A stretch of 64,000 bases of DNA, taken from assembly GCF_000027125.1 (NCBI RefSeq), contig NC_017626.1. One strand, given 5' to 3'. The position numbers were made by a program, and so were the translations under genes. The first letter of the stretch is position 1, and each line of letters starts with the position of its first letter. Below, piece after piece: positions 3,198 through 16,351 of the stretch. The notes beneath the pieces are model-generated. The model was not told the DNA's origin, did not search any database, and saw only the letters and a program-made list of their open reading frames with translations. Source of the DNA: Escherichia coli 042 (GTDB taxonomy: Bacteria > Pseudomonadota > Gammaproteobacteria > Enterobacterales > Enterobacteriaceae).

Positions 3198-3742
3198 AAA
3201 CGGGGGCTGAAGCCATCCGGGCGTTGTCCACACAGCTCCCGGCGTTTCGTCAGAAACTGAATGAGGGCTGGTATCAGGTGCGCATTGCCGGGCGTGATGC
3301 AGGCGAAAATGAATTATCTGCCCGTCTTAATGAGTCGCTGGCAAATGGTGCCGTGATCCACATTGTGCCGCGTCTGGCGGGAGCTAAAAGTGGCGGTGTT
3401 TTTCAGGCAGTGCTGGGTGCGGCGCTGATTGCGGTGGCATGGTGGAACCCTGTGGGCTGGCTGGGTGCCGCGGCTGTATCGGGCATGTATGCGGCAGGGG
3501 CCAGTATGATCCTGGGTGGTGTGGCCCAGATGCTGGCACCGAAAGCCCGGACGCCCACAGCGACCAGCACGGATAACGGTAAGCAGAACACCTATTTCTC
3601 ATCACTGGATAACATGGTTGCCCAGGGCAATGTTCTGCCTGTTCTGTACGGTGAAATGCGCGTGGGGTCTCGTGTGGTTTCTCAGGAGATCAGCACGGCA
3701 GATGAAGGGGACGGTGGTCAGGTTGTGGTGATTGGCCGCTGA
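3095..3742 (+). CDS. tail assembly protein I (lambda I-like)
   Basis: 215 aa; overlaps the K 3' end; Gly/Ala-rich hydrophobic C-terminal half as in lambda I. Confidence 0.7.
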   Translation: MAATHTLPLASPGMARICLYGDLQRFGRRIDLRVKTGAEAIRALSTQLPAFRQKLNEGWYQVRIAGRDAGENELSARLNESLANGAVIHIVPRLAGAKSGGVFQAVLGAALIAVAWWNPVGWLGAAAVSGMYAAGASMILGGVAQMLAPKARTPTATSTDNGKQNTYFSSLDNMVAQGNVLPVLYGEMRVGSRVVSQEISTADEGDGGQVVVIGR

Positions 3743-3760
3743 TGCAAAATATTTCATGTG

Positions 3761-3802: not shown

Positions 3803-6800
3803 ATGGGCAAAGGAAGCAGTAAGGGGCATATCCCGCGCGAAGCGAAGGACAACCTGAAGTCCACGCAGTTGCTGAGTGTGATCGATGCCATCAGTGAAGG
3901 GCCGGTTGAAGGTCCGGTGGATGGCTTAAAAAGCGTGCTGCTGAACAGTACGCCGGTGCTGGACAGTGAGGGGAATACCAATATCTCCGGCGTCACGGTG
4001 GTGTTCCGGGCAGGCGAGCAGGAGCAGTCACCGCCGGAGGGATTTGAATCCTCCGGTTCCGAGACGGTGCTGGGTACGGAAGTGAAATATGACACGCCGA
4101 TCACCCGCACCATTACGTCGGCAAACATCGACCGTCTGCGCTTTACCTTCGGTGTACAGGCACTGGTGGAAACCACCTCAAAGGGTGACAGGAATCCGTC
4201 GGAAGTCCGTCTGCTGGTTCAGATACAGCGTAACGGTGGCTGGGTGACGGAAAAAGACATCACCATTAAGGGCAAAACCACCTCGCAGTATCTGGCCTCG
4301 GTGGTGGTGGGTAACCTGCCGCCGCGCCCGTTTAATATCCGGATGCGCAGGATGACGCCGGACAGCACCACAGACCAGCTGCAGAACAAAACGCTCTGGT
4401 CGTCATACACCGAAATCATCGATGTGAAACAGTGCTACCCGAACACGGCACTGGTCGGCGTGCAGGTGGACTCGGAACAGTTCGGCAGCCAGCAGGTGAG
4501 CCGTAATTATCATCTTCGCGGGCGCATTCTGCAGGTGCCGTCGAACTATAACCCGCAGACGCGGCAATACAGCGGTATCTGGGACGGAACGTTTAAGCCA
4601 GCATACAGCAACAACATGGCCTGGTGTCTGTGGGATATGCTGACCCATCCGCGCTACGGCATGGGGAAGCGTCTCGGTGCGGCGGATGTGGACAAATGGG
4701 CGCTGTATGTCATCGGCCAGAATTGCGACCAGTCGGTGCCGGACGGCTTTGGCGGCACGGAGCCGCGCATCACCTGTAATGCGTACCTGACCACACAGCG
4801 CAAGGCGTGGGATGTGCTCAGTGATTTCTGCTCGGCGATGCGCTGTATGCCAGTATGGAACGGGCAGACGCTGACGTTCGTGCAGGACCGACCGTCGGAT
4901 AAGGTGTGGACCTATAACCGCAGTAATGTGGTGATGCCGGATGATGGCGCACCGTTCCGCTACAGCTTCAGCGCCCTGAAAGACCGCCATAATGCCGTTG
5001 AGGTGAACTGGATTGACCCGAACAACGGCTGGGAGACGGCGACAGAGCTTGTGGAGGATACGCAGGCCATTGCCCGTTACGGTCGTAACGTCACGAAGAT
5101 GGATGCTTTTGGCTGTACCAGCCGGGGGCAGGCGCACCGCGCCGGGCTGTGGCTGATTAAAACGGAATTGCTGGAAACGCAGACCGTGGACTTCAGCGTG
5201 GGTGCAGAAGGGCTTCGCCATGTACCGGGCGATGTCATTGAAATCTGCGATGATGACTATGCGGGTATCAGCACCGGCGGGCGCGTGCTGGCGGTGAACA
5301 GCCAGACGCGGACACTGACGCTCGACCGTGAAATCACGCTGCCATCCTCCGGCACCACGCTGATAAGCCTGGTTGACGGACAGGGGAATCCGGTCAGCGT
5401 GGAGGTCCAGTCCGTCACCGACGGCGTGAAGGTAAAAGTGAGCCGGGTTCCTGATGGCGTTGCCGAGTACAGCGTGTGGGGGCTGAAGCTGCCGACGCTG
5501 CGCCAGCGCCTGTTCCGCTGCGTGAGTATCCGTGAGAATGACGACGGCACGTATGCCATCACCGCTGTGCAGCATGTGCCGGAGAAAGAGGCCATCGTGG
5601 ATAACGGGGCGCACTTTGACGGCGACCAGAGCGGCACGGTGAATGGTGTCACGCCGCCAGCAGTGCAGCACCTGACCGCAGAAGTCACCGCAGACAGCGG
5701 GGAATACCAGGTGCTGGCGCGCTGGGATACGCCGAAGGTGGTGAAGGGTGTGAGCTTTATGCTTCGCCTGACCGTGGCAGCGGATGACGGCAGTGAGCGG
5801 CTGGTCAGCACGGCCCGGACGACGGAAACCACATACCGCTTCAGGCAGCTGGCTCTGGGAAATTACAGTCTGACAGTCCGGGCGGTAAATGCGTGGGGGC
5901 AGCAGGGCGATCCGGCGTCGGTATCGTTCCGGATTGCCGCACCGGCAGCACCATCGCGGATTGAGCTGACGCCGGGCTATTTTCAGATAACCGCCACGCC
6001 GCATCTTGCGGTTTATGATCCGACTGTACAGTTTGAGTTCTGGTTCTCGGAAAATCGGATTGCGGATATCAGGCAGGTTGAAACCAGCGCGCGTTATCTT
6101 GGCACGGCGCTGTACTGGATAGCCGCCAGTATCAATATCAAACCGGGCCATGATTATTATTTTTACGTTCGCAGTGTGAACACCGTCGGCAAATCGACAT
6201 TCGTGGAGGCTGTCGGTCGGGCGAGCGATGATGCGGAAGGTTACCTGGATTTTTTCAAAGGCCAGATAACCGAATCCCATCTCGGCAAGGAGCTGCTGGA
6301 AAAAGTCGAGCTGACGGAGGATAACGCCAGCAAACTGGAGGAGTTTTCGAAAGAGTGGAAGGACGCCAACGATAAATGGAATGCCATGTGGGGCGTCAAA
6401 ATTGAGCAGACCGAAGACGGCAGGCATTATGTCGCGGGGCTTGGCCTTAGTATGGAGGATACGGAGGAAGGCAAACTGAGCCAGTTCCTGGTTGCCGCTA
6501 ACCGTATCGCGTTTATTGACCCGGCAAACGGGAATGAAACGCCGATGTTTGTGGCGCAGGGCAACCAGATATTCATGAACGAAGTGTTCCTGAAGTATCT
6601 GACGGCTCCCACCATTACCAGTGGCGGCAATCCTCCGGTATTTTCCCTGACACCGGACGGGCGGCTGACGGCGAAAAATGCCGATATCAGCGGTAACGTG
6701 AATGCGAACTCCGGGACGCTCAATAATGTCACGATTAACGAGAACTGTCGGGTTCTGGGAAAACTGTCCGCGAACCAGATTGAAGGCGATCTCGTTAAAA

Positions 6801-7923: not shown

Positions 7924-10305
7924 GTGGATATGGCAGCAGTAAAAATCTCAGGTGTGCTGAAAGATGGTGCGGGAAAACCAATACAGAACTGCACTATTCA
8001 ACTGAAGGCAAAGCGTAACAGCACCACGGTACTGGTGAACACGGTGGCCTCTGAAAATCCGGATGAAGCCGGGCGTTACAGCATGGATGTTGAGTATGGT
8101 CAGTACAGCGTCACCCTGCTGGTTGAAGGTTTTCCGCCTTCACATGCCGGGACCATTACCGTCTATGAAGGTTCCAGACCAGGTACGCTGAATGATTTTC
8201 TCGGTGCCATGACGGAAGATGATGTCATGCCGGAGGCATTGCGTCGTTTTGAGGAAATGGTGGAAGAAGCGGCACGCAACGCTGAAGCCGCCTCTCAGAG
8301 CGCAGCGGCGGCAAAGAAATCCGAAACTGCAGCGGCATCATCGAAGAACGCGGCGAAAACCTCAGAAACGAATGCAGCTAACAGCGCACAGGCGGCAGCG
8401 GCCTCGCAGACTGCATCGGCAAACTCCGCAACAGCAGCTAAAAAATCAGAAACCAACGCGAAAAATAGCGAGACAGCCGCAAAGACGAGCGAAACCAACG
8501 CAAAGTCCAGCCAGACGGCAGCGAAGACCAGCGAAACGAATGCCAAAGCCAGTGAAACTGCGGCAAAAAACAGCCAGGTTGCAGCAGCCCAAAGCGAGAG
8601 CGCGGCAGCCGGTTCTGCGACTTCAGCAGCTGGATCAGCAACTGCTACGGCTAACAGCCAGAAAGCTGCGAAGACGAGTGAAACTAACGCAAAGTCCAGC
8701 CAGACGGCAGCGAAGACCAGCGAAACGAATGCCAAAGCCAGTGAAACTGCGGCGAAAAGCAGTCAGGATGCAGCGGCTCAAAGCGAGAGTGCCGCAGCCA
8801 GTTCTGCAAGCGCGGCGGCTGCTTCTGCCACTGCATCAGCTAACAGTCAAAAAGCAGCAAAAACCAGTGAAACCAACGCAAAGGTGAGCGAAACAGCGGC
8901 AGCGAACTCAGCGAAAGCATCGGCAGCAAGCCAGACGGCAGCTAAAGCAAGCGAAGATGCAGCCAGAGAGTACGCAAGCCAGGCTGCGGAGCCGTATAAA
9001 TATGTCTTACAGCCGCTGCCTGATGTGTGGATACCATTTAACGATTCGCTGGATATGATTACGGGCTTTTCGCCGTCATATAAAAAAATTGTTATTGGTG
9101 ACGATGAAATAACGATGCCTGGCGACAAGATTGTTAAGTTTAAACGTGCATCGAAAGCAACCTATATTAACAAATCTGGTGTGCTGACAGAGGCTGCCAT
9201 TGACGAGCCACGATTTGAACGTGATGGCCTGCTTATTGAGGGGCAAAGAACAAACTACATGCTCAATTCGGAAAGCCCTGCCAGTTGGGGGCGATCTTCA
9301 AATATGGATGTGCCCGAAACAGGGACGGATAATTTTGGTTTTACCTATGGAAAGTTTGTCTGCAACGATTCTCTGATTGGGCAAACCTCAGCCATTAATA
9401 TGGCATCAATTGCTGCAACAAAGTCAGTTGATGTCTCAGGCGATAATAAACACGTGACAACCTCATGTCGTTTTAAAACAGAACTGCAGGTAAGGTTGCG
9501 TATCCGGTTTGATAAATATGACGGTAGCGCAACAACTTTTCTTGGTGATGCGTATATTGATACACAAACGCTTGAAATTAATATGACAGGCGGTGCTGCC
9601 TCAAGGATTACAGCGAGAGTCAGAAAGGACGAAGCTACCGGATGGATTTTTGCAGAGGCAACAATTCAGGCAATTGATGGGGAGCTAAAAATAGGCTCTC
9701 AGATACAGTATTCTCCTAAGCAGAGCGGGGCAACCGTATCTGGTGACTATATTTATCTGGCCACCCCACAAGTAGAAGATGGGCCTTGTGTATCATCTTT
9801 TATTATATCAGGAGCGACGGCGGCGACCCGCGCAAGCGATATAGTTACAGTTCCAATTAAGAATAATCTTTATAATCTTCCTTTTACGGTTCTTTGTGAG
9901 GTACATAAGAACTGGTATAAAACGCCAAATGCAGCGCCACGTGTTTTTGATACCGGCGGTCATCAAACCGGAGCGGCTATTATTCTTGGCTTCGGTCGTT
10001 CAACAGATTACGACGGATTTCCTTATTGCGATATTGGAGGAGCTAACAGACGGGTAAACGAAAACGCATCGCTTGAAAAAATGGTTATGGGGATGCGTGT
10101 AAAGTCAGAGCAGTCTACGTGCTCAGTAAGTAACGGGCATATATCCAGCGAAACAAAAACCACATGGTCCTGTATTCAGAACACCGCAATTATCCGTATT
10201 GGAGGCCAGACTACAGCCGGGTTACGTCATTTATTTGGTCATGTCAGGAATTTCAGAATATGGCACAAGGCATTGACTGATGCTCAGGTGGGGGAGTCAA
10301 TCTAA
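7924..10305 (+). CDS. side tail fibre protein (Stf-like) with collagen-like Ala/Ser/Thr repeat shaft and divergent C-terminal domain
   Basis: N-terminal ~100 aa match the recalled lambda Stf N-terminus (MA.VKISGVLKDG.GKP.QNCTIQLKA...); KTSETNAK repeat shaft; C-terminal half (from ~nt 9000) visibly lower GC. Confidence 0.75.
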   Translation: MDMAAVKISGVLKDGAGKPIQNCTIQLKAKRNSTTVLVNTVASENPDEAGRYSMDVEYGQYSVTLLVEGFPPSHAGTITVYEGSRPGTLNDFLGAMTEDDVMPEALRRFEEMVEEAARNAEAASQSAAAAKKSETAAASSKNAAKTSETNAANSAQAAAASQTASANSATAAKKSETNAKNSETAAKTSETNAKSSQTAAKTSETNAKASETAAKNSQVAAAQSESAAAGSATSAAGSATATANSQKAAKTSETNAKSSQTAAKTSETNAKASETAAKSSQDAAAQSESAAASSASAAAASATASANSQKAAKTSETNAKVSETAAANSAKASAASQTAAKASEDAAREYASQAAEPYKYVLQPLPDVWIPFNDSLDMITGFSPSYKKIVIGDDEITMPGDKIVKFKRASKATYINKSGVLTEAAIDEPRFERDGLLIEGQRTNYMLNSESPASWGRSSNMDVPETGTDNFGFTYGKFVCNDSLIGQTSAINMASIAATKSVDVSGDNKHVTTSCRFKTELQVRLRIRFDKYDGSATTFLGDAYIDTQTLEINMTGGAASRITARVRKDEATGWIFAEATIQAIDGELKIGSQIQYSPKQSGATVSGDYIYLATPQVEDGPCVSSFIISGATAATRASDIVTVPIKNNLYNLPFTVLCEVHKNWYKTPNAAPRVFDTGGHQTGAAIILGFGRSTDYDGFPYCDIGGANRRVNENASLEKMVMGMRVKSEQSTCSVSNGHISSETKTTWSCIQNTAIIRIGGQTTAGLRHLFGHVRNFRIWHKALTDAQVGESI
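8461..8900 (+). repeat. in-frame 189-bp tandem direct repeat (~2.3 copies) inside the side tail fibre gene
   Basis: CAAAGTCCAGCCAGACGGCAGCGAAGACCAGCGAAACGAATGCCAAAGCCAGTGAAACTGCGGC occurs at 8501 and 8690; unit starts near 8461, 8650, 8839. Confidence 0.75.
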
Positions 10306-10586
10306 TGAAAGATTTAACACTCAAATTTGCCGACAGGGCCGACTTTTCGGCCTTTATGGATAGCACTGGCTATTATGATGACGAGTCGATGCAGGATGAT
10401 ATTCTTATTGACGTGATAGGTAACGTGTACAAAGAAACCGGAGAACTGACTGAAGATGGCGAACCGGTATGTGTTAAGGAAGACGGATATTTTGTAAACG
10501 TGCGCATCATTAATGATTCGCAAATATCGTCATTATTCGATGAATACGTGGTTGCTGTTGAGCATCAACTTCGTGGCTGGATGTGA
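10305..10586 (+). CDS. hypothetical protein, translationally coupled to the tail fibre gene (possible fibre assembly/chaperone factor)
   Basis: 93 aa acidic protein; ATG overlaps the stf stop (TAATG); no recognised motif. Confidence 0.4.
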   Translation: MKDLTLKFADRADFSAFMDSTGYYDDESMQDDILIDVIGNVYKETGELTEDGEPVCVKEDGYFVNVRIINDSQISSLFDEYVVAVEHQLRGWM

Positions 10587-10595
10587 GGAAGAAAA

Positions 10596-11636
10596 ATGGC
10601 TACATCGACAGTAATTCCTGATGACATCAAAACGCTAAAATCCGACGTTAGCAAATTAAAAAACGATCAAGGAAGCTACGCAACAAAATTATATGTAGAC
10701 AGCAAAGATGAAATCGTTGGTGACTGGTCTGCTTCATGGTATCAGCAGGTATTGCCAACTAGCGGAGCTATATTTGGGAGAAAACTCCGCTCAACTCACA
10801 GGACGGCAGGTGTTGAGGATGCGTATTGCGAACTATACCTCAAAAAATGGATAGACAGTCCAGGTAACGCAATGGCGCGCCTTAACCTGAACGATAACGG
10901 GACAAACATTTGCTGGGACTTTACCAACCTTTATGGCGGTACGATGATTTTTCCCGGTGACAGCGGATACCTCAAAATGGGTAACTGCCTTATGTCATAC
11001 AGCAAGCGTGGAAGTAACGCGCTTATTAAATTTGATTACACCGACACATTACAGATCAAATATGCCAATCATGGGTCAACCATGACATTAAACACACAGG
11101 GAACCGCTTATGCTGGTGTTACTGCTCAATTGTGGGGCAACACCAGCCGTCCTGTTGTTTATGAAGTCGGTGTTGATGGTGGCGCTTATATGTTCTATGC
11201 GCAGAAAAATACCGATAACACCTATATGTTAAGCGTTAATGGTGCATGTCATGCCACCGCATTTAACCAGCATTCCGACCGGGATCTGAAAGACAACATT
11301 CAGGTGATCGATAATGCAACCGACCGCATCCGTAAAATGAACGGCTATACATACACGCTTAAAGAAAACGGTATGCCCTATGCTGGTGTCATTGCACAGG
11401 AAGCTCTGGAAGCAATCCCAGAAGTTGTAGGTTCCGCAATGAAATATCAGGACGGTGCGAGCGGATCGGAAGGTGAAGAAGGTGAACGTTATTACACAGT
11501 AGATTATTCTGGTGTTACTGGCTTGCTTGTTCAGGTAGCCAGAGAGTCAGACGACAGAATAACAGCACTGGAAGAAGAAAACGCAGAATTAAGACAAAGA
11601 TTATCTGCAATTGAGGCGGCGCTTGCGTCTAAATAA
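10596..11636 (+). CDS. tail fibre/spike protein with C-terminal intramolecular chaperone (peptidase S74-like) domain
   Basis: 346 aa; GAGGAAG SD upstream; C-terminal HSDRDLKDNI motif matching the S-D-x-R-x-K-x-N-I autocleavage signature, followed by a coiled-coil tail. Confidence 0.6.
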   Translation: MATSTVIPDDIKTLKSDVSKLKNDQGSYATKLYVDSKDEIVGDWSASWYQQVLPTSGAIFGRKLRSTHRTAGVEDAYCELYLKKWIDSPGNAMARLNLNDNGTNICWDFTNLYGGTMIFPGDSGYLKMGNCLMSYSKRGSNALIKFDYTDTLQIKYANHGSTMTLNTQGTAYAGVTAQLWGNTSRPVVYEVGVDGGAYMFYAQKNTDNTYMLSVNGACHATAFNQHSDRDLKDNIQVIDNATDRIRKMNGYTYTLKENGMPYAGVIAQEALEAIPEVVGSAMKYQDGASGSEGEEGERYYTVDYSGVTGLLVQVARESDDRITALEEENAELRQRLSAIEAALASK

Positions 11637-11642
11637 TATTAA

Positions 11643-11665
11643 GGGGCCGAGCGCCCCGTTTTATT
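11643..11665 (+). terminator. hairpin plus T tract after the fibre gene
   Basis: GGGGCCGAGCGCCCCG followed by TTTTATT. Confidence 0.4.
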
Positions 11666-11678
11666 GGGTAGGATGAAA

Positions 11679-11972
11679 ATGGATATAACACCTTTCCTTC
11701 ATGCGCTTTGTGCTGTGGCTGCGCAGCTACTGATTGGTCTTTTTACCGGGAACTGGGCTTACGGGGCGATAGCCGGTTGTACGTTCTTCATTGCGCGTGA
11801 ACACACCCAGGCAGAATATCGCTGGATCGAAATGTTCGGGCATGGCAAGCGAATGAATATGCCGTGGTGGGGCGGTTTTGATCCGCGTGCATGGGATGTG
11901 GCAAGCCTGATGGATTTTGCTGTGCCGGTGGTGGCGTGTCTGCTGGTCTGGCTGTTGGTTAATCGTGGGTGA
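11679..11972 (+). CDS. small hydrophobic (probably membrane) protein, unknown function; prophage moron position
   Basis: 97 aa from the ATG with AGGA 6 nt upstream (longest frame from 11664); two to three hydrophobic segments; no known motif. Confidence 0.4.
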   Translation: MDITPFLHALCAVAAQLLIGLFTGNWAYGAIAGCTFFIAREHTQAEYRWIEMFGHGKRMNMPWWGGFDPRAWDVASLMDFAVPVVACLLVWLLVNRG

Positions 11973-12323
11973 AAAAAGGTGAGCTGTATATGCAACGGAG
12001 GAAGAAACCCCGTTGCTGGAAGCCTGGAAAAAGTATCGGATGCTGCTGAACCGTGTTGATACATCAACTGCACCTGATATTGAGTGGCCTACGAACCCTG
12101 TCAGGGAGTAATCATTGGGATTATGCCGCAGAAACGTTGTATGCAATAACGTTCTGCGGTTGGCTGATGCACTTTCGAGAGTGCATGTATTGAATTATTT
12201 CCAGCTATTATCGATTTTACGTATTTTTTGCATGAGAGAATTTGTACCTCCTCCCAACAACGACCTTCCATGACTTTCCGGACTTCTGTGGGCCAGCGGA
12301 CGATGCTGCCCTCGGATGTTGTG

Positions 12324-13181
12324 CTAATTGGGTGATGACAAATCCTGTGTATGGGTGTTTCCCTTTGTGCGTGCGTTGATGCTGGTAACGGTGAACGTCA
12401 TGATGAACACAACCGCGAATAAGACGACAATCGTCGGAGCTGGTGCACTGTCGATAAAAAAGGACAACCAGACACCAGTCATTGACACTATTACCGATAT
12501 GCCAATCGCCAGTAGGAGCGCAATATGAAAGCGTTGTGTCAGGAGTACCGCAATGGCGCCAGGCGCAATGAGCAGAGAAATGGAGAGAATGATACCTACC
12601 GCTTTCAGCGTCGCCACAATGGTCAGAGAGACCATGCACAGCAGCCCATAATGCAGACATCTCGTATGCAAACCGCTTACCTGCGCCTGTTGATAATCAA
12701 AGCTGAACAGCAAAAAATCCCGCCATTTTACGCTAATAACAAGTGTAACCAACCCGGCAATAATCACCGTCTGGATTATATCGCCGATGGTTACCCCGAG
12801 CATGTCGCCGAAAAGAATATGGTCAAGATGTACGTCTGGTTTGACTGCAATATACAAGATCAGACCTGCGGCAAACATGCCAGAAAAAACAATCCCCATC
12901 ACTGTATCTTGCTTGATTCGGCTGTTGTCTTTCAGGTATCCCGTCGCCACCGCGCAGAATACTCCGGCGACGAATGCCCCTGTAGCCAGAGGTAACCCCA
13001 GAATCCAGGCAAGCACGATGCCAGGAAAAACCGCATGACTCATCGCGTCACCCATCAGTGCCCAACCTTTCAGGACCAGAAAGACCGACAGCAGCGCACA
13101 GGGTATGGAAACTACCAGTGAAATCAGCAGTGCGTGACTCATAAAGGTGAACTGCAGTGGCTCCAGTAATAATGCCATCAT
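12324..13181 (-). CDS. sitD: Mn/Fe ABC transporter permease SitD
   Basis: 285 aa polytopic membrane protein; second of two paralogous permeases; 4-nt overlap with sitC. Confidence 0.85.
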   Translation of the reverse strand: MMALLLEPLQFTFMSHALLISLVVSIPCALLSVFLVLKGWALMGDAMSHAVFPGIVLAWILGLPLATGAFVAGVFCAVATGYLKDNSRIKQDTVMGIVFSGMFAAGLILYIAVKPDVHLDHILFGDMLGVTIGDIIQTVIIAGLVTLVISVKWRDFLLFSFDYQQAQVSGLHTRCLHYGLLCMVSLTIVATLKAVGIILSISLLIAPGAIAVLLTQRFHIALLLAIGISVIVSMTGVWLSFFIDSAPAPTIVVLFAVVFIMTFTVTSINARTKGNTHTQDLSSPN

Positions 13182-14035
13182 GAGCGATCCTCCAGCGCTT
13201 TATGCGCACGCCGACGATTTGCCAAAAGCCCATGGGTGGGCGCAAATACAAATGCTAAAAGAAACAGCAGTGTCTGCGCCACCACGATGATTCCACCTGT
13301 CGCGCCGTCCAGAAAGTAACTGACCCACGCGCCGAGGAAACTGGTTACACTGCCAATAGTTACAGCAATTATGAGCAGGCGGGGAAAATGATCGGTTAAC
13401 AACCATGCTGTTGCACCGGGAGTCACCACCAGACAGATCACCAGAAAGGCACCAACCGTTTGCAGCGCCGCAACGGTCGAAACCGACAGCAGGGTGAAGA
13501 AGAGGATTTTTAATCTGCCCGGATGCAATCCAATAGCACGAGCGTGATTCTCGTCGAAAAAGGTCACCATAAGATCTTTCCATTTGAAAAAAAGCACGAT
13601 GATCGAGAGAATGCCAATGATAGTGAGTTGCAGGATATCCGCCGGATCGATTGCCAGAATATTGCCCAGGACGATGGTCTGAATGTTCACGGATGTCGGG
13701 TTCAATGACACCATAAACAGCCCCAGGCCAAAAAAGGAGGAGAAGATCAGGCCGATGATGGCATCTTCTTTTAAGCGAGTGCGTTGGTTAAGAAACAGCA
13801 TGCTGCCCGCTGCCAGTCCGCCGGAAAAGAAGGCTCCCAGAGAAAACGGAAGCCCCAGCATATATGCCCCCGCAACACCCGGGACAATAGAGTGCGACAG
13901 CGCATCGCCAATCAGCGACCAGCCTTTTAGCATCAGATAGCATGACAGGAAAGCGCAGAGACCGCCGACCATCGCCGAGACCCACATCGCATTGAGCATA
14001 TATTCATAGCTGAAGGGTTCCAGTAGCACGTTCAT
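13178..14035 (-). CDS. sitC: Mn/Fe ABC transporter permease SitC
   Basis: 285 aa, ABC-3 type permease; overlaps sitB and sitD ends. Confidence 0.85.
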
Positions 14036-14859
14036 CTTGCTTCCCCCTGCACCGCTGACGGTCGATGTGCCACAAAAGGGTGTTCATCGTCAGTAATAAT
14101 GCTTTCTTCCGAGCCGTTAAGTGTGACATGGCGCAGTACGCCGCTAAAAGCCAGCTCCAGGTTCTCGGCTGTAAAAGTGGTGTCTGTCGGCCCGCTTGCC
14201 AGGACGGTGCCTTTGACCATGACCGTATAATCGCAAAATGTCGTGACTGAGCCGAGATTGTGCGTTGAGACAAGCATCGTCTTGCCTTCCGCGCGTAACT
14301 CCCTCAACAGGCTGATGATTTTCGCTTCGGTTTTCACATCAACGCCGGTAAAAGGTTCATCCAGCAGGATCACATCACCCTGCTGTGCAATCGCTCTCGC
14401 CAGAAAGACGCGTTTCTTTTGTCCACCGGAAAGCTCGCCGATTTGTCGATGGCGAAAATCCACCATATCGACACGTTCCAGCGCATCGGTGACAATCTGA
14501 CGATCCCTCTTTTTGGCTATACGCAACATACCCATGTGCCCATAGCGGCCCATCATCACCACATCTTCCACTAGTACAGGAAATGACCAGTCAACCTCTT
14601 CTGACTGAGGGACGTAGGCAACCAGGTTTTTCTGTAGCGCCTGTCGCGTGGGAATACCCAGAACAGATATCTTTCCGCTGGTCAGACGGACAAATCCCAT
14701 AATCGCTTTAAACAACGTCGATTTTCCGGAACCGTTTACCCCAACCAGAGCGGCAATAGATCCACTTGGTACTGTGAAGGATGCATCGCGCAGTGCTGTG
14801 TGCCCGTTACGCCAGGTGACAGTAACATCATTAACGACAATGCCCGCAGATTGCATCAT
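14032..14859 (-). CDS. sitB: Mn/Fe ABC transporter ATP-binding protein SitB
   Basis: 275 aa; Walker [13 protein letters not shown] signature LSGGQKKR, Walker B ILLDEP. Confidence 0.9.
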
Positions 14860-15773
14860 TATTTCTCCCTTTTCCCGGCTTTAATTCCCTGTACCAGCGT
14901 ACTGGTAGTAACCTTCAGAAGGTCGATATACGTAGGTACCGGGCCGTTTTCTGTGCTCAGGGAATCGACATAGAGTACACCGCCGTAGTGCGCGCCGGTT
15001 TCACGCGCAACCTGACGCGCTGGTTTATCGGAAATCGTACTCTCGCTAAAGACTGCCGGGATATGATTTTTCTTCACCATATCAACAACCTTACGTACCT
15101 GCTGCGGCGTGCCTTGTTGATCGGCATTAATCGGCCACAGATAAAGCTCTTTTAGCCCCAAATCGCGTGCGAGATAAGAAAAAGCCCCTTCACTGGTGAC
15201 CATCCATCGCTGATTCTCAGGGAGTTCAGCAATCTGCTTACGCAGGGGGGCAAGGGTTTGGGTAATCTTGGCTTTATAAGTATCGGCATTACGTTGGTAG
15301 GTTTGTGCATTTGCCGGATCGTATTTTATCAACGCATCACGAATATTATCGACATAAATCAGAGCATTATCTGGCGACATCCAGGCATGGGGGTTAGGTT
15401 TGCCCTCATAGGGTCCTTCGGTGATCCCTACTGGCGTCACACCCGAAGAGACAATTACTTCTGGAACCCCATTGAGATGTTGGTAAAAGCGTTGGAACCA
15501 CAATTCCAGATTCATACCATTGGCGAGAATCAGTTGTGCCCCCTGCGCACGTTTAATATCTCCAGGGGTAGGCTGATACTCATGAATTTCTGCACCAGGC
15601 TTGGTTATGGATGAGACTTCTGCAGCATCTCCAGCCACGTTTTTGGCCATATCCGCGATGATGGTAAATGTTGTAATGACCTTGAATTTTTCAGTTGCAC
15701 TTGCCTGAAATGCGATCGAGCAGGTGAGGGCGAGGCACCCCAAGAGCATGGTTACTTTTTTTATTGAGTGCAT
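14859..15773 (-). CDS. sitA: periplasmic Mn/Fe-binding protein SitA (cluster 9 / TroA-like)
   Basis: 304 aa with signal peptide; first gene of a four-gene co-directional operon. Confidence 0.85.
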
Positions 15774-15804
15774 AATTTAGTACCTATAGTGAGCAAAATT
15801 AGAA

Positions 15805-15828
15805 AAAACATAGCAACAGCTATGTTTT
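15805..15828 (-). promoter_or_regulatory. MntR-type operator upstream of sitA
   Basis: Palindrome AAAACATAGC-AACA-GCTATGTTTT, 32-55 bp upstream of the sitA start; matches the recalled E. coli MntR box (AAACATAGC...GCTATGTTT). Confidence 0.6.
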
Positions 15829-15849
15829 ATAGCATAAGCCATGCAAAAT

Positions 15850-15868
15850 GAAAATGATTATCATTAGC
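15850..15868 (-). promoter_or_regulatory. Fur box-like site upstream of sitA
   Basis: GAAAATGATTATCATTAGC resembles the Fur consensus GATAATGATAATCATTATC, ~80-95 bp upstream of sitA. Confidence 0.5.
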
Positions 15869-15981
15869 GGTTGTGGGCCCAACACAGGGATTAGGTTGTT
15901 TCCTGCTGGCGATGTGGTATTGAGGAAAAAATTAGGGCAGCTATTAGGCTTTGAAATGACTTTATGAGGAGAATTGTTGAT

Positions 15982-16032
15982 GGCAAAAATGGGGCAAAGC
16001 GCTGCAAAAGGGGCAAAAAAGGGGCAAAAAAA
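15982..16032 (+). repeat. short tandem GGGGCAAA(A) repeats (4-5 copies)
   Basis: GGCAAAAA, GGGGCAAAG, GGGGCAAAAAA, GGGGCAAAAAAA in tandem; overlap a 22-codon Lys-rich mini-ORF (15980-16048) with a GAGGA SD 9 nt upstream. Confidence 0.4.
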
Positions 16033-16331: not shown

Positions 16332-16351
16332 GCCCGCAGCAATGTGCGGGC
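16332..16351 (-). terminator. hairpin immediately downstream of uspF
   Basis: GCCCGCA-CATTGC-TGCGGGC on the minus strand followed by TTTTTGATT. Confidence 0.5.

Follow-up and report, generated by a model that had tools for sequence, protein, structure and literature searches.

A predicted dual Fur/MntR operator-promoter in front of sitABCD in Escherichia coli 042, with a putative second MntR-type box

In this study, we analysed a stretch of 64,000 nucleotides from Escherichia coli 042 (contig NC_017626.1; hereafter the window, 64 kb). We found that the 63-bp block at 15806-15868, upstream of the minus-strand gene sitA, is with a probability of about 90% the dual Fur/MntR operator-promoter of the sitABCD operon, judging from its sequence and conservation. 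A sequence-only reading of the same DNA had described a near-perfect MntR-type palindrome at 15805-15828 and a Fur-box-like site at 15850-15868, both within about 100 bp of the sitA start, and had proposed that dual metal regulation is intact in this copy. Both motifs lie where it had placed them, at 32-55 nt (palindrome) and 77-95 nt (Fur-box-like site) before the sitA ATG, and the palindrome is in fact perfect. In addition, we found two elements that it had missed: a degenerate MntR-type box at 15825-15846 (core 15829-15842) and a second Fur site at 15844-15862, shifted by 6 bp from the first. Its description was incomplete in that there are two MntR-type boxes and a two-site Fur cluster, and its proposal of intact dual regulation is supported by the motifs, the intact operon and the conserved layout. 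Intact dual metal regulation of the 042 copy would thus be the expected reading. The arrangement is already known, and the locus reads as an unexceptional instance of it, with the control region intact. The features are listed in Table 1.

Table 1. Coordinates of the sitABCD operon and of the predicted control elements in the window
Feature	Position	Strand	Details
sitD	12324-13181	-	285 aa, full length
sitC	13178-14035	-	285 aa, full length
sitB	14032-14859	-	275 aa, full length; NCBIfam manganese/iron ABC ATPase equivalog, 589.6 bits vs cut-off 393
sitA, periplasmic Mn/Fe-binding protein	14859..15773	-	304 aa, full length, ATG 15773; Pfam ZnuA match
Proximal MntR operator (predicted)	15806..15827	.	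22-mer AAACATAGCAACAGCTATGTTT; 18-bp site 15808-15825
Distal degenerate MntR-type box (putative)	15825..15846	.	core ATGGCTTATGCTAT on sitA strand, + strand 15829-15842; 18-bp site 15827-15844
Putative extended -10, TGcTATAAA	15826..15834	-	hexamer 15831-15826; formed by right half of distal MntR core
Fur box cluster (predicted)	15844..15868	-	two overlapping 19-mers, 6-bp phase: 15850-15868 (GCTAATGATAATCATTTTC, sitA strand) and 15844-15862
Putative -35, TTTTCA	15849..15854	-	within Fur cluster, 17 nt from -10; TTttCA conserved
Terminator-like hairpin and T-run after uspF	16332..16351	-	upstream limit of sitA transcription unit

The operon behind this block codes for a complete importer, that is, a cluster A-I binding protein, an ATPase and two permeases, all of them intact. 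The stop and start codons of sitB, sitC and sitD overlap (12324..14859), and RefSeq gives sitABCD the same extents in near-identical E. coli chromosomes. SitA, SitC and SitD match related Mn/Zn uptake families with scores below the cut-offs of those families. The exact SitA protein is widespread. The sit locus lies at the edge of a prophage beside uspF-ompN-nifJ, and the operon (12324-15773) abuts prophage tail-fibre and tail-fibre-assembly genes (10305-12270); the tail-fibre-assembly gene is annotated as a truncated remnant in a near-identical genome. Genes for Fur and MntR themselves were not found within the 64-kb window. The claim of the sequence-only reading that sit operons are repressed by Mn-MntR and Fe-Fur agrees with reviews on sitABCD. 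In these reviews, the role of MntR is credited to Ikeda 2005 (S. Typhimurium) and Runyen-Janecky 2006 (S. flexneri), among others. In Salmonella, sitA was 53.8-fold up in a fur mutant, and a published alignment of MntR sites uses the mntH, mntR and sitA promoters of E. coli, S. Typhimurium and S. flexneri.

The palindrome at 15805-15828 consists of two 10-nt arms, 100% complementary to each other, around a 4-nt spacer (AAAACATAGC / aaca / GCTATGTTTT). It agrees with the pattern AAACATAGCN4GCTATGTTT at every position and is the sole match in the window even when three mismatches are allowed, while shuffled sequences give an expectation of 0.01 per 64 kb. The same pattern recovers boxes upstream of K-12 mntH, dps, mntS and mntP (two boxes), all of which were taken as MntR targets. 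These five K-12 sites were used to build an MntR matrix, from which sitA was left out. On this matrix, the proximal box reached 28.0 bits and ranked first in the window, whose next best site had 10.45 bits; the training sites score 23.9-31.3 bits. The box has the form of an ATAGC-N4-GCTAT inverted repeat of about 18-22 bp with A/T-rich flanks. Furthermore, it stands in front of a manganese-homeostasis gene, where it would overlap the promoter, and it is conserved in orthologues. By its sequence, the palindrome scores as bona fide E. coli MntR operators do.

Position 15805 is a T on the sitA strand, and most close relatives have a G there, so that the arms are 10 bp long here and 9 bp long in those relatives. 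Among the loci compared, only LR134238.1 had a 260-nt upstream region identical to that of the window. An identical 80-mer was absent from the RefSeq complete E. coli genomes searched by megablast, where the best match had one mismatch; the 238 records matched are not a population survey, since a short-query megablast needs a 28-nt word. Elsewhere in the window, a perfect MntR core (ATAGCACTGGCTAT) occurs at 10360-10373 within a prophage hypothetical ORF (10305-10586). We regard this core as probably due to chance, as it lies within phage coding sequence and its flanks depart from the consensus; our own estimate for such cores is about 0.06 per 64 kb.

The palindrome could also act in the RNA, as an attenuator or terminator hairpin in a long sitA leader that starts from a promoter-like site at 15986-15959. 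The consensus scan indeed calls it terminator-like on the sitA strand (10-bp stem, 4-nt loop, T-rich tail), with a fold energy of -11.4 kcal/mol, and the upstream promoter-like site does exist. However, such a fold is nothing unusual (z = -1.68; equalled by 11 of 200 shuffles), the stem has no more than 3 G-C pairs out of 10, and no Rfam family matches. Moreover, conservation between genera does not extend 5′ of the Fur box. The arms are fixed as ATAGC/GCTAT across genera, and their changes are one-sided and uncompensated, as is typical of half-sites for a protein; MntR targets of K-12 that are unrelated to sitA carry this sequence as well. For these two reasons, uncompensated arm changes and recurrence at other MntR targets, we rejected the hairpin reading, which we consider very unlikely.

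The second motif, GAAAATGATTATCATTAGC at 15850-15868, agrees with the Fur consensus GATAATGATAATCATTATC at 16 of 19 positions on the plus strand and at 17 of 19 on the sitA strand. None of 100 shuffles matched the consensus as well. Known K-12 Fur sites have 2-6 mismatches to this consensus, and the site has 2. In addition, we scored the window with a Fur matrix of 10 sites from nine K-12 Fur-regulated promoters, from which sitA was again left out. The site at 15850-15868 ranked first with 25.1 bits, higher than all training sites (11.2-23.8 bits), and thus scores, as a sequence, like the best E. coli Fur boxes. The second rank in the window went to the overlapping site at 15844-15862 (18.5 bits). 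Overlapping sites in 6-bp phase are the known form of Fur clusters (PMC2189734). The Fur box also covers the best -35 candidate of a start site that is itself a prediction.

In AT-rich DNA such as this intergenic region, short palindromes are frequent, so both motifs might be chance palindromes with no regulatory role. We consider this reading practically negligible. It is refuted by the shuffle statistics (expectations of 0.01 for the palindrome and 0 for the Fur 19-mer) and by the conservation of both positions across about 20 genera. Furthermore, two independent matrices put these sites in first place, far ahead of the rest of the window.

The degenerate box lies directly upstream of the palindrome. 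Its core, ATGGC-TTAT-GCTAT, has one mismatch to ATAGC-N4-GCTAT, and it was also recovered by a direct-repeat search, in which ATAGCAACAGCTATG (15810-15824) repeats 19 bp off as ATAGCATAAGCCATG. On the five-site MntR matrix, the distal box has 4.9 bits and taken alone falls outside the accepted E. coli range. This matrix underrates boxes with TTTT/AAAA flanks, so core mismatches were counted as well. In the whole window, we found five MntR cores with at most one mismatch, against 1.75 expected. Such cores are rare and this one lies exactly 19 bp from the main site; thus its presence by chance is not plausible. The two 18-bp sites, 15808-15825 and 15827-15844, are separated by 1 bp and stand in a 19-bp register, which is the geometry of a paired array. 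At B. subtilis mneP, MntR dimers form cooperative arrays on 18-bp sites with 1 bp between them, and the pair of sites at E. coli mntS has this geometry too; in B. subtilis, the 19-bp register allows weak sites to be bound cooperatively (PMC11275975). From this geometry, MntR probably occupies the weaker distal box too, in a cooperative manner. Nevertheless, at 4.9 bits on a small matrix, the distal box may not be a MntR binder here.

For comparison, we took sitA upstream regions from a genome scan (80 loci, outside E. coli, Shigella and Salmonella) and from sit copies on E. coli chromosomes and plasmids. Those of S. bongori, C. koseri, a Raoultella-like contig and Salmonella were added later; the Salmonella SitA was found with a Citrobacter SitA search. 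The 24 enterobacterial sitA promoters could be aligned without gaps over the Fur block, the two cores in 19-bp register and the ATG, while the flanks diverge. A second core stood at exactly the 19-bp register in all 24, right after the conserved block AAATGATAATTATTTTCATTT. Both cores are perfect in Shimwellia, Pluralibacter, Cedecea, a Klebsiella sp. locus, two of the four Erwinia loci and several Enterobacter loci. The Fur-then-MntR layout is common to the Salmonella, S. bongori, C. koseri and Raoultella-like promoters.

Within E. coli, the divergence hotspot of the sit promoter is the distal left half and the spacer (window 15829-15846), with ATGGC, ATAGG and ATAGC as the left half among the window and the five loci compared with it. 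For instance, the distal core is ATAGG-TTGT-GCTAT in CFT073 and ATCC 25922. Meanwhile, the allele of an IncF plasmid has a perfect distal core and ATAGT in the proximal one. In CFT073 (NC_004431.1), RefSeq annotates sitA as a frameshifted pseudogene, and the promoter is intact and like the other chromosomal alleles.

We tentatively propose, at slightly under even odds, that the MntR operator of enterobacterial sitA promoters is a conserved pair of boxes instead of the usual single one. It would consist of two 18-bp sites 1 bp apart, in the cooperative geometry of B. subtilis mneP and E. coli mntS, with the right half of the distal site serving as an extended -10. The alignment suggests that the damage to the distal left half differs between E. 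coli, Salmonella and Citrobacter, and that in one IncF plasmid allele the proximal box was damaged instead. This allelic variation at the distal or proximal box could be a tuning of manganese repression.

The main rival of this proposal is a single-site model, in which MntR binds the perfect palindrome only, manganese repression works through one dimer, and the distal box has decayed to a remnant that persists for its -10 element alone. The distal box has the core mismatch ATGGC and poor flanks in addition to its low score, and its left half is degraded in Salmonella and Citrobacter as well. Moreover, every E. coli allele examined has one core mismatch in one of its two boxes, and four of the six differences from CFT073 in the 95 nt upstream of sitA fall into the distal left half and the spacer, as relaxed constraint predicts. 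However, the rarity of cores with at most one mismatch, the exact 19-bp register known for cooperative binding in B. subtilis, and the perfection of both cores in most genera all speak against a mere remnant. We consider the single-site model somewhat doubtful. The paired-box refinement of the dual operator-promoter is a modest addition that agrees with known MntR behaviour.

The closest known system is the sitA promoter of Salmonella enterica Typhimurium in SPI-1, which resembles the window in its Fur box with a 6-bp-shifted partner, its degraded distal core (ATACC-TTGT-GCTAT) and its strong proximal box (27.2 bits). The Salmonella sites are at -99 (Fur) and -57 (MntR), compared with -95 and -54 in the window, and the gap between the Fur block and the distal core is 1 nt shorter in the window. 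The two promoters differ in sequence, and the Fur box of the window (25.1 bits) is much nearer to the consensus than that of Salmonella sitA (15.9 bits). The genomic context also differs, since the window holds a prophage-adjacent island by uspF-ompN-nifJ, whereas the Salmonella operon lies at fhlA-ygbA in SPI-1. The sit loci of Shigella flexneri and pathogenic E. coli are essentially of the same type as the window, with CFT073 and ATCC 25922 as the sequences compared. In these two, the Fur box is identical to that of the window, the proximal box differs in the spacer only, and the distal mismatch is ATAGG instead of ATGGC.

K-12 mntH has the same order of elements, with a Fur box, a perfect MntR box (AAACATAGC-N4-GCTATGTTT) and the ATG, and follows the same two-repressor logic. 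Its dual repression by Fe-Fur and Mn-MntR goes back to Patzer and Hantke 2001, as cited by later papers. In contrast to the window, the MntR box of mntH stands alone, since a partner at +/-19 bp is missing, and the gene codes for an NRAMP transporter and not for an ABC system. An extra CATAGC half-site is present 11 nt upstream of the left arm of this MntR box, in the stretch between that arm and the Fur box and outside the 19-bp register (3742-3756 of the mntH locus, L085). The promoter of K-12 mntS/rybA (6555-6595 of its locus, L086) is like the window, with a strong proximal box and a one-mismatch distal box at +19. In mntS, TATAAT spans the junction of the two boxes and the RybA 5′ end is at 6565. 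It has been proposed that mntS was derived from the signal-peptide region of sitA (bioRxiv 10.1101/2023.06.02.543501), and the architecture that the mntS and sitA promoters have in common fits this idea.

The paired arrays of E. coli mntS and B. subtilis mneP/mneS overlap the promoter in 19-bp register, as the predicted pair of the window would. However, the mneP array activates transcription, while the array of the window would repress it, and cooperativity of E. coli MntR at sitA is assumed by analogy. Yersinia yfeABCD and rhizobial sitABCD (Fur-only/Mur) code for homologous transporters with a Fur-family box upstream. The MntR box was absent at the alpha-proteobacterial loci and at most Pseudomonas and other non-enterobacterial loci scanned, where the best sites had at most about 7 bits. 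P. oryzihabitans was the sole exception among the non-enterobacterial loci scanned, with a moderately MntR-like box of 18.1 bits. The rhizobial, Ensifer and Alcanivorax sitA promoters carry no MntR box, and palindromes of the GCAAATG...CATTTGC type occur about 85 nt upstream. From these sequences, the picture is consistent with a replacement of MntR by Fur/Mur-type control outside Enterobacterales.

For the promoter itself, TTTTCA-17-TGcTATAAA ranked highest among the sigma-70-like candidates within 227 bp of the sitA start. GCTATA hardly varies in the alignment across genera, also where the distal left half has decayed. This would be explained by the putative extended -10, which coincides with the right half of the distal core. 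Transcription is predicted to start at about 15819, in the middle of the proximal box. Likewise, RybA/mntS of K-12 has its annotated 5′ end at the centre of its proximal MntR box, which supports the analogy on which this start site is based. From this layout, we infer the promoter elements, the start site, the binding of MntR to the distal box and how the 042 copy behaves.

According to the mechanism that we propose, the block would be the target of two metal-sensing repressors. Iron-loaded Fur would sit on its two overlapping sites and cover the likely -35. Manganese-loaded MntR would sit on the palindrome and cover the likely transcription start; it would probably also bind the distal box, more weakly and cooperatively, and thus lie over the extended -10. 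Either repressor would exclude RNA polymerase, so that sitABCD would be switched on only if iron and manganese are both scarce.

A second sigma-70-like candidate, TTGCCA-16-TAAAGT, is found at 15986-15959, about 190 nt upstream of sitA. We do not favour it as the main promoter, as the conservation between genera ends just upstream of the Fur block. It belongs to a block of roughly 120 bp 5′ of the Fur box (15870-15987) that is common to the E. coli chromosomal and ColV-plasmid sit copies and is not shared between genera. This block could hold a second promoter or another regulatory input. Next to it, at 15982-16031 (210-260 nt upstream of sitA), there is an A/G-rich 11-nt tandem repeat, AAAAGGGGCAA, of about 2.4-4.8 copies. 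Its copy number differs among sit loci; for example, pAPEC-O2-ColV lacks 31 nt and the IncF copy lacks more. For most plasmid and chromosomal sit copies, the homology ends near this repeat.

Beyond annotation, the importance of these results is small. They indicate that this E. coli sit locus, which codes for a virulence-associated Mn/Fe importer and lies next to a prophage, retains a canonical Fur and MntR control region, and its expression should therefore track the published pattern of iron and manganese starvation. If the paired operator is true, the lineage-specific damage of single boxes may tune the sharpness of the sit response to manganese, and the architecture common to sitA and mntS would agree with the proposed descent of mntS from a sitA gene. 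A pair of boxes in 19-bp register, kept across genera with lineage-specific weakening of half-sites, would then be a natural allelic series for cooperative MntR repression.
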